DNA of 42,280 nt from positions 1 to 42,280 of IMG/VR virus record IMGVR_UViG_3300033067_000119. One strand, written 5' to 3'. This DNA is from a virus (taxonomy: Duplodnaviria > Caudoviricetes). The translations under genes were made by a program, and so were the position numbers. The notes below the pieces were generated by a model. The model was not told the origin of the DNA, did no database searches, and was given only the letters and a program-made list of their open reading frames with translations. Positions 2,058 through 41,407 of this stretch are shown piece by piece; within the stretch, counting starts at the first letter, position 1; every line of letters starts with the position of its first letter.

Positions 2058-2075
2058 GCCACTTGGTAAGGGTTA
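2056..2075. promoter_or_regulatory. candidate repressor operator
   Basis: TTGCCA-CT-TGGTAA-GGGTTA. Confidence 0.55.
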
Positions 2076-2747
2076 GGCCACAGCGATTGCGATTGCCTTC
2101 TTTTTGCTAACCCCGTGGGCGCGGAAGGCGACAATCACAGAACGATTGACCTTCTGGCACAGCTTGCACTCTGCACAGCTCTTGGCCTTGCCGGTTTGCT
2201 CAGGACAGACAACCACAGAGCGGCCCTCTGGTGTTGTGCTCTTCTCTGGGTGATCAGCGTCAACCACAGCGACCACAGGGCCGATATTCAGGGCAGCTAG
2301 AGTGTCCGCATGCTTGAGGTTGTTTCCAGACAGGTTGACAGTGAACCCTTGCTCATTAGACCACTGGACAATCTGGGCATTCATGCCCTTGTTCATATTG
2401 TGGTGAGTGTAGGTGAAACCCTTACGACCACGATTAGAACAAACCAGCTCAGTCATAGCCTCAAAATCAATAAAACCTTCCTCAGAGGGCAGGTCCCCAG
2501 CTTGATTGTGCCTCCACAGTTGACCCTCAGGCAACCCAGCGACAGAGCTGCAGAACTCACCCCAGCTCACCCCAGCTTCGTGGCGCGAGACCTTACCCCA
2601 GAACAAGGCCAGAGGGCCTCCATCGGCATAACAGCCTGATTTTTTAAAGGGACAGTCCGAAGGGCAGCTCTTGGCTTCTGTGGTTGAGACAGGGATAGGG
2701 CCAACCTTCTCGTTGCGGCTTTTGAGGGTGAGGTGAACTTGGGTCAT
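2073..2747 (-). CDS. Cys-rich phage protein (Gp88/radical-SAM-like, putative Fe-S)
   Basis: CPSDCPF..GCYA, WRHNQAGD, FTYTH and C-terminal CPEQ..CAECKLC; GGAG RBS. Confidence 0.65.
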   Translation of the reverse strand: MTQVHLTLKSRNEKVGPIPVSTTEAKSCPSDCPFKKSGCYADGGPLALFWGKVSRHEAGVSWGEFCSSVAGLPEGQLWRHNQAGDLPSEEGFIDFEAMTELVCSNRGRKGFTYTHHNMNKGMNAQIVQWSNEQGFTVNLSGNNLKHADTLAALNIGPVVAVVDADHPEKSTTPEGRSVVVCPEQTGKAKSCAECKLCQKVNRSVIVAFRAHGVSKKKAIAIAVA

Positions 2748-2815: not shown

Positions 2816-2920
2816 TCAGCCGAGGAAACAGTATAGCAGAGTTAAAAATGCTATCCCGTAGACAATGAACAAGCAGAGGTGCTGCAGGGCTAACAGGGCG
2901 AGGTCTTTTGCGTTTGGCAT
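2816..2920 (-). CDS. 34-aa single-pass membrane peptide
   Basis: AGGAG RBS; MPNAKDLALLALQHLCLFIVYGIAFLTLLYCFLG. Confidence 0.55.
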   Translation of the reverse strand: MPNAKDLALLALQHLCLFIVYGIAFLTLLYCFLG

Positions 2921-2993
2921 TGTAGTAACTCCTAGGTTATCGGGACAATTCCCGCAGATACCCTCAGGCGACTAAGGGTATGCGCTGGCTTTG

Positions 2994-3398
2994 TCAGAGA
3001 CCGTTTTTCTTGAAATAGGCTTGAATGAGGTCACTCAGCACGTCACGGACAGCGAAGCGGTCCACGTTGTGGGTTGCAGCCAGCTTGTCCGCAGCAGCCG
3101 TGGACTCCTCACCGAAGCGGCTCCACAAGTCGAAGGCCTTATCTGCAGCCTCTTTGACCTTGCGCTCGTTTGCGACCCTCAGAGCGTCTGTGCGAGCCTC
3201 TTGGGTGACCCAAAGGTCAGCGATCACAACCTCACCCTCTTGGGTGCAGCTAGCAGCGTGGCGCACCTCAGAGATCAGCGTTGTGAGGTCCTCAAGCATT
3301 TGGCGGTCTGTGCCCTCAGCAAAGGCCTTGGCAGCGTTGACAGCACGAGAGGCTACACGTTCAATTTTGATCAGGTGTTCTAATGTGAAGACTTGCAT
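2994..3398 (-). CDS. first early gene, hypothetical helical protein
   Basis: 134-aa ORF with AGGAG RBS; first ORF after the terminal non-coding region. Confidence 0.75.
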   Translation of the reverse strand: MQVFTLEHLIKIERVASRAVNAAKAFAEGTDRQMLEDLTTLISEVRHAASCTQEGEVVIADLWVTQEARTDALRVANERKVKEAADKAFDLWSRFGEESTAAADKLAATHNVDRFAVRDVLSDLIQAYFKKNGL

Positions 3399-3451
3399 GT
3401 GAATAACTCCTAAGTGAACCCCTAGAACAGCTCTAGGGTTGCAATAACACT

Positions 3452-3467
3452 TGCTATAACCGTGCCA
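3452..3467 (-). promoter_or_regulatory. candidate sigma54 (-24/-12) promoter
   Basis: TGGCACGGTTATAGCA: GG-N10-GC, one mismatch to TGGCACG-N4-TTGCW. Confidence 0.5.
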
Positions 3468-3532
3468 ACCTGAAAACCCACCGATTAGAAACCTTAGGTA
3501 TTCAAAACGAGGGTCCTAGAGCTAGTCCTGTG

Positions 3533-3589
3533 GTCTCCATTGTGGTGCATGCTCACCAAAGCAGTGCAGGAATGATCGCTTGTGGTGCA
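3533..3589. promoter_or_regulatory. three NtrC-like binding sites
   Basis: Minus strand TGCACCACAATGGAGAC (3533-3549), TGCACTGCTTTGGTGAG (3552-3568) and TGCACCACAAGCGATCA (3573-3589) versus TGCACCA-N3-TGGTGCA. Confidence 0.45.
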
Positions 3590-3592
3590 TCC

Positions 3593-3629
3593 TGTGGATA
3601 GTGTGGATAACTGGAGGTGCTGTGGATAA
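3593..3629 (-). promoter_or_regulatory. DnaA-box cluster
   Basis: TTATCCACA exact at 3602-3610 and 3621-3629; CTATCCACA at 3593-3601. Confidence 0.6.
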
Positions 3630-3796
3630 CGTGGAGTAGTCGCTAGGTTGGTCTCTAGGACTGTTGTTTTTATACAACGAAAGCGCACCGATGCACGAGC
3701 ATGCACAGTGTTGTATTTTCGCAACACTTACTCTTGCACCGGTAGAACCCTCTAGATACCCCTGCACTAGATTCCATAGCTAGATAAATCCGTTAT

Positions 3797-3810
3797 AAAT
3801 CAACGACTTA
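3797..3810 (+). promoter_or_regulatory. IHF consensus site
   Basis: AATCAACGACTTA matches WATCAANNNNTTR; identical 14-mer at 39824-39837. Confidence 0.55.
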
Positions 3811-3949
3811 CGACAGCCTGTGACAGACCCTGTGCCAACCTGAGGTCAAACCTGAGGCAGAACGGGAGGAAACGGAGGGGCAGAGGGGGGAGTTCGCCAC
3901 CGCCATTTCTCGAGGTGGGCTTACATATTTTTTCAACTAATTATTTTGG

Positions 3950-4145
3950 ACCCTAGAGTCACACCTAAAGAACAATCCTCAGGAAGGCCTCCAGGAACCC
4001 CTAGAAGCCCTCTAATCGATCAACCCTAGGGTACCCCCTTAGTTGTCCTGAGGACTGTCTTTAAGACTATCATAGCTGGTATTATCATTGATGGTACTAT
4101 ACCTAGAGGTATCACCTAGAGACTCCTATAGAAACCTATAGGTTG
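3950..4145. repeat. short CCTAG/CCTAAAG/CCTATAG repeats, probably flanking the physical genome end
   Basis: Multiple CCTAGAG, CCTAAAG, CCTAGGG and CCTATAG units downstream of terL, analogous to the T7 terminal CCTAAAG arrays. Confidence 0.45.
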
Positions 4146-4391
4146 TCTCTGAGAGTACAGCTATATCCTAGCCGATATAGGCTCCAGATCCCTCTCTCTC
4201 TATTCTATTTACAGATATTATATGCTTACAATAGCTTACAACATCTGTGAAGAGAACAGAGAGAGAGAAGTGGAACCCACATCATCTAGGACACCTACAT
4301 CCTGAGCACGACATGAGGACCAGCCAGCTAAAGCCGGAACCCCAAGTAGCTATTCGCAACCCAGGATCATCCCTCAGAAAGCAAGGAGCTT

Positions 4392-39537: not shown

Positions 39538-39555
39538 TCCAATTGTGCAACCATT
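39538..39555 (-). promoter_or_regulatory. candidate phage RNAP promoter upstream of the RNAP gene
   Basis: AATGGTTGCACAATTGGA. Confidence 0.65.
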
Positions 39556-39668
39556 GGAGTTCCTCCTACGTTCTCATTGGTTGTCTACCGTCAAGTGATT
39601 GTCACCGTTTGTGACACATTAGTTGTCACACGAAGAGTCTAAAGGAAACCTTTGTCCTTAGGTAACAC

Positions 39669-39688
39669 TCTCCATTTGGTAACTGTTC
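39669..39688. promoter_or_regulatory. candidate repressor operator in the RNAP leader
   Basis: TCTCCA-TT-TGGTAA-CTGTTC, next to a weak minus-strand TTACCT-N18-TAGACT. Confidence 0.5.
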
Positions 39689-39694
39689 CGTTGA

Positions 39695-39729
39695 AACGAA
39701 AAGAACCCCCTGATTTCTCAGGAGGTTCT
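39695..39729 (-). terminator. intrinsic terminator downstream of the tRNA fragment
   Basis: AGAACCTCCTGA-GAAA-TCAGGGGGTTCT-TTTCGTTT. Confidence 0.8.
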
Positions 39730-39753
39730 AAGTCGAACTGAGCTGTTTGAATC

Positions 39754-39809
39754 TGGTGCGGTCGAGAGGACTCGAACCTCCACGGATTTCTCCACTAGCA
39801 CCTCAAGCT
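39754..39809 (-). other. 3' half of tRNA-Leu(GAG), the attP identity block (not a full tRNA)
   Basis: AGC-TTGAGGT-GCTAG anticodon arm, long variable arm, GGTTCGAGTCC T-arm and CGACCGCACCA end; no D-arm or 5' strand. Confidence 0.9.
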
Positions 39810-39903
39810 GGGTGATACAAGAGAAATCAACGACTTAGGTTGTCACAGATCCACGAAAATCAGCCTCAGTTGTCACAGCTCAATGGCCTGTGACAGGTGG
39901 TCT

Positions 39904-41332: not shown

Positions 41333-41352
41333 CAACAGTTTCCACTTGGCAA
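41333..41352. promoter_or_regulatory. candidate repressor operator
   Basis: Minus strand TTGCCA-AG-TGGAAA-CTGTTG, abutting the -35 above. Confidence 0.55.
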
Positions 41353-41387
41353 GTGTCTGGCCAAAAGTAGTGCACCAGATGGTTACC

Positions 41388-41407
41388 TTCCACCTTGACA
41401 ACTGTTG
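41388..41407. promoter_or_regulatory. candidate operator covering a plus-strand TTGACA
   Basis: TTCCAC-CT-TGACAA-CTGTTG; TTGACA at 41395-41400. Confidence 0.5.

Follow-up and report, generated by a model that had tools for sequence, protein, structure and literature searches.

A predicted NtrC- and sigma54-type early promoter flanked by DnaA-type boxes in a temperate T7-like phage, and its recurrence in unrelated phages

Sigma54 RNA polymerase requires an enhancer-bound ATPase; the E. coli promoter glnAp2, for instance, is a sigma54 promoter activated by NtrC, which is phosphorylated (NtrC~P) under nitrogen limitation. T7-like phages are assumed to start from strong sigma70 promoters, and the T7 genome is pulled into the cell via host-polymerase transcription from promoters at its left end. 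Here we describe a cassette composed of a predicted sigma54 promoter, NtrC-type enhancer boxes and DnaA-type boxes in the 42,280-nucleotide IMG/VR record IMGVR_UViG_3300033067_000119 (this whole stretch is called the window in the following). The window holds the circularly permuted genome of an uncultured phage with its genes on the minus strand, and the cassette sits between the terminase stop and the first early open reading frame (ORF).

Neither sigma54 use by a phage nor the co-option of host regulators by phages is new, and the cassette is a further variant of such co-option. Pseudomonas phage YuA uses host sigma54 (10.1101/2023.10.13.562163, PMC5053324), which the accessible part of one account terms rare among phages (PMC5053324). 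YuA thus resembles the window phage in its use of a host sigma54 promoter, but it has no RNA polymerase of its own, and the available parts of its descriptions make no mention of an NtrC enhancer, of DnaA boxes or of a cassette at the genome end (10.1101/2023.10.13.562163, PMC5053324). Likewise, sites for host regulators are described in terminal or gap regions of phages, with CtrA in lytic deferment, Spo0A in phi29 and LexA as examples in the accessible text (PMC9437464), and co-option has been proposed for NtcA sites in cyanophages (excerpt of PMC3037559). These cases have in common with the cassette that the phage reads the state of its host via host-regulator sites, and NtcA, too, conveys a nitrogen signal. 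However, none of these regulators is a sigma54 enhancer protein, whereas the cassette is a sigma54 enhancer system that stands in front of the first gene and is passed as one block between phage lineages.

LUZ100 and other temperate T7-like phages share the genome plan of the window phage, i.e. terminal repeat, early genes, MarR-like regulator, integrase and RNA polymerase, yet the mapped early promoters of LUZ100 (P1–P3) are given as sigma70-like in the sections available (PMC10134795), whereas the first promoter of the window is of the sigma54 type. T5, like the window phage, carries DnaA boxes in non-coding DNA of its first-entering end; there, however, eight boxes form an oriC-like array of hypothetical role, and the accessible portion of the report names no NtrC/sigma54 promoter (10.1101/866236). 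According to partial texts, the nitrogen response is under the control of NtrC, which also links it to the stringent response, cells starved for long are lysed more slowly by T7 (PMC7458820), and glmY/glmZ exemplify overlapping sigma54 and sigma70 promoters and drift between them (PMC3045617). Searches of the open-access literature brought up no article that describes an NtrC/sigma54/DnaA cassette in phages or at phage genome ends.

Among host promoters, those of Burkholderiales glnA and glnK-amtB resemble the cassette in their GG-N10-GC box, in TGCACCA-N3-TGGTGCR boxes 78-125 base pairs (bp) upstream, in helical phasing and sometimes in an IHF box in between. They differ in having two NtrC boxes at about 30 bp, whereas the cassette usually has three with a period of 20-21 bp. 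Moreover, unlike host NtrC promoters, the cassette is phage-borne and DnaA-flanked, and appears to drive phage early genes.

Architecture of the window copy

The -24/-12 box of the window, TGGCACGGTTATAGCA (TGGCACG-GTTA-TAGCA), lies at 3452..3467 on the minus strand and has one mismatch to TGGCACR-N4-TTGCW, with a predicted +1 at 3441. It carries GG at -25/-24 and GC at -13/-12 with the spacing of exactly 10 bp that defines sigma54 promoters, is intergenic and points towards a gene with a ribosome-binding site (AGGAG, 3411-3407) and an ATG at 3398. Upstream on the same strand are three 17-mers with 3, 4 and 4 mismatches to the NtrC consensus: a proximal box (3533..3549, centre -100), a middle box (3552..3568, centre -119) and a distal box (3573..3589, centre -140), the last with a perfect left and a poor right half. 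An NtrC enhancer is marked by at least two 17-bp TGCACCA-N3-TGGTGCR boxes that lie in helical phase some 80-150 bp upstream, as is the case here. Box, predicted start and 17-mers had been named by an earlier, sequence-only reading of this DNA and are all present as described; it had overlooked the DnaA-type boxes. Three of these occupy 3593..3629 on the minus strand (3621-3629 and 3602-3610 perfect, 3593-3601 with one mismatch and 3 bp from the distal NtrC box), and another, TTATTCACA, lies downstream between the ribosome-binding site and the ATG (3398..3406, about +35 to +43).

No sigma54 activator or HTH_8 domain was found among the window proteins, so a host activator protein would be needed. 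Within 22-75 bp of the first ATG, there is no sigma70-type -10 hexamer.

For scoring, we built matrices from 57 Burkholderiales upstream regions (29 of 30 glnA and 28 of 30 amt loci, leaving out two loci from one unpublished genome, G027, and one weak amt match); they comprise 34 host sigma54 sites and 51 host NtrC sites and were seeded with consensus motifs. By the Burkholderiales matrix, the sigma54 box scores 13.1 bits and is the best on both strands of the 42 kb, while the two best NtrC boxes, the middle one with 10.4 and the proximal one with 8.5 bits, are the second- and sixth-best sites in the window. The composite score of the sigma54 box and the two best NtrC boxes is 32.0, which none of 2000 shuffles of the 487-bp region reached; the best other tiles of the window score about 13. 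Scoring against shuffled sequence, as proposed earlier for this locus, therefore sets it apart, even if the copy is weak by host standards. Plain consensus counts of single motifs were discarded as proof, being unremarkable genome-wide: there are 3 sigma54-like matches against 0.98 expected (reached by 8 of 100 shuffles) and 5 NtrC-like matches against 2.8 expected (15 of 100 shuffles).

Recurrence in relatives and in unrelated phages

Terminase searches yielded 62 distinct left ends after the removal of 30 near-duplicates, of which 57 had a usable anchor and first ORF and 5 were dropped. Only three of the 57 carry a full sigma54 box: the window, L137, which was picked up by its terminase and not by a motif search, and L009. 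In these, the box lies 68-69 bp before a first gene that differs in each, and an NtrC-type box is found 82 bp upstream of it, an offset also seen for L423. Their composites are 32.0 (window), 40.9 (L137) and 43.9 (L009), and the next best of the 57 is 20.0. Window and L137 agree at 78 of 89 positions within motifs and at 90 of 148 outside them (p 7e-6, a value inflated, like all p values here, by kinship among the phages), and the equivalent of the distal box in L137 scores 12.6 bits. L009 has an IHF box between enhancer and promoter, a 1-mismatch NtrC box and a 31-bp spaced pair as in host glnA. In a terminase tree of 33 rows, every carrier forms a strongly supported sister pair with a non-carrier, which suggests module swapping or repeated loss. 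In many non-carriers, the place of the cassette is taken by a sigma70-type -10 hexamer, which lies 38-55 bp ahead of the ATG; the cassette therefore appears to be an alternative first promoter.

The same layout occurs well outside this group. A scan of IMG/VR with one NtrC half-site and a sigma54 box gave 120 loci from 28 of 64 parts, and the best of these belong to non-T7 phages with the same arrangement, including DnaA boxes that the pattern did not contain. A second scan with a DnaA-box fragment, GCAC and a sigma54 box gave 68 loci, 31 of them with a composite of at least 27; with 10 duplicates removed and the window and L137 added, these amount to 23 distinct cassettes (L441 is on the same contig as L009). 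They span five terminase groups, which were assigned by neighbouring packaging genes and each include a terminase match, with a few loci having no upstream gene to classify.

Several features were not fixed by the pattern, namely the second and third NtrC boxes, their right halves, the helical phasing, the DnaA gap and the downstream DnaA box. The gap between a DnaA box and the following NtrC half-site is exactly 3 bp in 17 of 23 cassettes. Counted from the T of TGGCAC, a DnaA-like box starts at a distance of 59-61 bp in 14 of 23, irrespective of the position of the ATG, while 2116 other positions hold 2 matches; host nitrogen promoters almost never show this DnaA-NtrC-sigma54 arrangement, with such a box near glnA/amtB promoters (-260..+110) in only 1 of 34. 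Furthermore, the 55 phage NtrC boxes are helically phased to the -24 box (R 0.74), and the sigma54 box is oriented towards a first gene 59-92 bp past it. A 16-mer identical to the window's box heads the cassette of the unrelated phage L453.

An additional scan, blind to the -12 box, retrieved 48 loci, 33 of them distinct. Of the 10 loci that have a strong NtrC pair, 9 show GC at exactly N10, compared with 1 of the remaining 23 (Fisher p 2.5e-6, which kinship exaggerates), and the tenth strong-NtrC locus has tandem TGGCAC motifs, the second of which, 7 bp on, has GC at N10. The promoter and enhancer part of the earlier proposal thus withstands the refuting condition on spacing that was set with it, in that GG-N10-GC is kept where the enhancer is present. 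None of the 23 carrier records has an activator gene. A blastn search of two cassette copies against 50,697 phage records gave no meaningful match, and of two narrow IMG/VR patterns, one returned 2 chance matches inside coding DNA and the other none.

Besides these cassettes, the phage contigs L312, L347, L306, L390 and L331 of IMG/VR combine a sigma54 box and an NtrC-type site without an adjacent DnaA box; L347 carries a tandem of two strong sigma54 boxes.

Proposed function and alternative explanations

The cassette is a real, selected regulatory element. Given that five packaging groups have the same layout, the first genes of the window phage are likely switched on by the host's nitrogen-starvation regulator. 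As judged from the sequences, the cassette is probably a host-run promoter of the first early gene, fired by NtrC~P under nitrogen limitation, with DnaA likely tuning it. The nitrogen-sensing part of this proposal, which the sequence-only reading had already put forward, is inferred from the likeness of the motifs to host NtrC sites.

NtrC~P bound at -100 to -140 would loop to sigma54 polymerase, and RNA would start near 3441, expressing the 134-residue ORF together with the small genes that follow. In a phage of the T7 type, such a transcript may also help to pull the genome into the cell. The module could thereby keep early infection going in nitrogen-starved hosts, replacing the usual sigma70 promoter. 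The weakest step concerns DnaA: from its sites at +35 and 3 bp beside the distal box, it might damp the promoter in fast-growing cells; alternatively, it might stabilise NtrC on these weak boxes. If the cassette is active, small aquatic phages, T7-like ones included, can hand their first transcription to the host's nitrogen-stress system, and a control element moves between unrelated lineages like a gene. It offers a testable part of 240 bp for studying how phages infect nutrient-starved cells. A more far-reaching proposal, which we consider doubtful, is that of a portable two-input gate, switched on by NtrC~P, modulated by DnaA and swapped among at least five packaging lineages; as the only host promoter in the first-entering DNA of the window phage, it would let the nitrogen and replication state of the host decide genome pull-in and infection.

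Several observations weigh against a nitrogen-responsive promoter. The cassette is absent from 54 of 57 T7-like left ends, including that of the closest relative L214 (95% terminase identity), and is therefore dispensable for the clade. Near the box of L009 and L137, there is in addition a sigma70-like -10, and these phages possibly use dual promoters. Of the GenBank relatives of non-T7 carriers, none of three has the full cassette and one has the box alone. In the window copy, -14 is an A, where 33 of 34 host sites have a near-invariant T; A is found here in 3 of 23 cassettes, and it lowers the predicted strength of the promoter, not its class. The NtrC boxes of the window (10.4 and 8.5 bits) fall below the 10th percentile of host sites (12.7 bits; minimum 9.0, leave-one-out), at or below the bottom of the host range, while those of other carriers reach 19.8 bits, and the window composite is the fourth lowest of the 23. 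Finally, kinship affects the p values as stated above, and the finding that 55 phage boxes match the host NtrC matrix on both halves is, like their helical phasing, partly circular because the boxes were picked with that matrix.

The sites might instead form a landing pad, where DnaA, NtrC and sigma54 polymerase coat, tether or protect the entering end, or are titrated, with no productive transcription. This would fit the mosaic of host-type sites at the left ends of relatives (DnaA boxes in 13, Fur-like sites in 6 and TGTTG-N7/8-CAACA in 8 of 57), the single strong NtrC boxes (17-21 bits) that lie without a sigma54 box at the first-gene position of L013, L015, L057 and L077, and the DnaA-box array that the accessible text on T5 places at the injection stop (10.1101/866236). 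Yet the order of the elements, their helical phase to -24, the exact N10 and the orientation to the first gene suit a promoter and are unneeded by a decoy, and we regard a landing pad as unlikely. It also appears quite unlikely that the cassette works in other phages while the window copy is decaying and early transcription comes from another promoter. The T-to-A change at -14 and the low box scores are what decay would leave, and six relatives, including L214, retain TGGCAYG with GC at N14 and no NtrC pair; the TAGCA variant, however, is also present in two unrelated carriers, L453 with its identical 16-mer and L426, the spacing is intact, and we found no consensus sigma70 promoter on the minus strand from 2950 to 4200. 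As for the signal, a true sigma54 promoter could answer to another host enhancer-binding protein with an NtrC-like preference and to a cue other than nitrogen. Although the right halves are less strict than those of host sites (C occupies position 16 in 64% vs 100%) and the phase is about 2 bp off that of host glnA/amtB promoters, the full 17-bp profile follows host sites upstream of glnA and amtB, and L009 has its 1-mismatch box and a spaced pair like that of host glnA, which makes a different activator very unlikely.

Two further possibilities concern individual parts of the cassette. It is highly improbable, though compatible with a nitrogen-responsive promoter, that the DnaA boxes are a host-initiated replication origin, activated through transcription from the sigma54 promoter: boxes in the same orientation flank an AT-rich spacer, and L009, L424, L434 and L453 have an IHF box, but the window encodes its own primase-helicase and polymerase, there are only 3-4 boxes, and the downstream one is anchored to the promoter. 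The other possibility is that TGGCAC at 3467 serves an integrase as an arm-type site, or a phage repressor as its operator, and that the -12 match is due to chance. The attP arm motif of the window and of its relatives does consist of GTGCCA/GTGACA repeats, and a 12-bp repeat containing TGGCAC, to which the sequence-only reading had drawn attention as a caveat, is confirmed at 3462-3473 and 3832-3843. The two copies are separable, however. The one at 3832 belongs to an arm-type pair TGGCAC/TGTCAC with a 12-bp period, which lies outside the promoter beside an IHF box (3798-3810; whole element 3798..3843, minus strand) and thus has the repeated TG(T/G)CAC next to IHF that is typical of integrase arm sites. 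The copy at 3467 lacks this arrangement: it is single, comes with a -12 box whose GC at N10 travels with the NtrC boxes, and is kept in carriers without an integrase match. Accordingly, the 3832 copy is an arm-type repeat and the 3467 copy part of the predicted promoter, and an arm-type or operator role at 3467 is barely credible.

Genome context and neighbouring elements

The window phage is a temperate T7-like phage related to Gyeongsanvirus. It encodes terminase, capsid, polymerase, primase-helicase, RNA polymerase, tyrosine integrase and a helix-turn-helix regulator, and shows all hallmarks of the temperate T7-like group, namely a MarR-like regulator before a single-subunit RNA polymerase, a tyrosine integrase and an attP of the tRNA type. 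The RNA polymerase shares 71% identity with those of Ralstonia Gyeongsanvirus phages, 65% with that of Bordetella phage BB8 and 54% with that of a Limnohabitans phage, and a betaproteobacterial host is therefore likely. Searches for the host via the attP tRNA-Leu core matched 0 of 401 genomes, G027 among them, and 0 of 41 others, and a scan of genome contigs returned distant prophages only (terminase identity at most 64%).

A left terminal repeat of about 224 bp is predicted at 3692..3915 (minus strand) from homology with vRsoP-WF2, whose annotated repeat of 281 bp begins about 24 bp ahead of a C-run and ends inside an ATCAGT..TTT motif. The predicted +1 would therefore be about 475 bp inside the genome end, and this predicted end, which carries the cassette, likely enters the cell first. 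In 31 of 57 left ends, integrase-arm-like repeats with an IHF box after them lie within this predicted repeat, and a CTAGCT..AGCTAG palindrome usually comes next; the arrangement may serve packaging, circularisation or integrase binding. Directly upstream of -24 is an ATCGGTG-N2-TTT motif (3474..3485, minus strand), possibly a degenerate IHF site. In the form ATCRGT-N3-TT (window 3474-3485 and about 3681-3692), it occurs at least once in 40 of 57 left ends. In vRsoP-WF2, a copy marks where the terminal repeat has its right edge, and in many relatives another precedes the -10 of the first promoter by 18 or 29 bp. A 7-bp hairpin predicted by folding at the transcript start (3420..3438, minus strand) is no better than shuffles (z -0.49).

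The first early ORF (2994..3398, minus strand; 134 residues) has no PHROG or Pfam match and 10 homologues besides itself, none with a functional name. Behind it are a hydrophobic 34-codon ORF (2819-2920, minus strand), similar to the first gene of L137 and containing a match to TGCTATACT at 2838, and a DUF7227/GP88-like early gene of 224 residues (2073..2747, minus strand), whose homologues lie downstream of the cassette in unrelated carriers. A contig of the riverine relative X3 covers 3432-3812, from which it departs by 29 differences and 6 gaps; where the window has its first ORF, this contig carries other sequence.

The sequence-only reading had also tied the promoter to lysis/lysogeny or induction. 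In the window, the regulator-integrase pair is about 4.3 kb downstream of the cassette. We rejected a lysis-lysogeny switch as a general role, since none of the three non-T7 carrier records that are at least 90% complete has a tyrosine or serine recombinase, and the absence of the cassette from most T7-like left ends lends the idea no support either. The attP region itself (39,590-39,900, minus strand) contains the 3' half of a tRNA-Leu(GAG)-like core at about 39,754-39,810, flanked at about 39,600-39,900 by GTG(A/C)CA arm repeats on both sides and by a 13-bp IHF box (39,825-39,837) identical to that in the left end. A hairpin-U-run terminator-like sequence precedes the RNA polymerase gene.

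Elsewhere on the minus strand, the motif GGTTGCACA(ATTGG) is repeated at 39,552, 36,903, 35,053 and 22,803, upstream of RNA polymerase, replication and capsid genes, and is a candidate promoter of the phage RNA polymerase. By eye, palindromic sites of the TTGCCA/TGGCAA/TGACAA type are seen at about 2775-2815, 2050-2070, 41,340-41,400 and 39,590-39,680, adjoining a weak sigma70-like promoter, the regulator gene and attP; they are candidate operators of the MarR-like protein.

At the first-gene position of other relatives, we noted Fur-like, LexA-like (by eye) and TGTTG-N7/8-CAACA sites. The first promoters of L214, L007, L014, L031, L037 and L138 combine an IHF-type box with TGGCAYG-N9-TGCTATA, i.e. 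a sigma54-like motif with 4 extra bases. This longer spacing is kept in the diverged sequence of L007, and the motif is possibly a sigma54 promoter converted to the extended -10 type.
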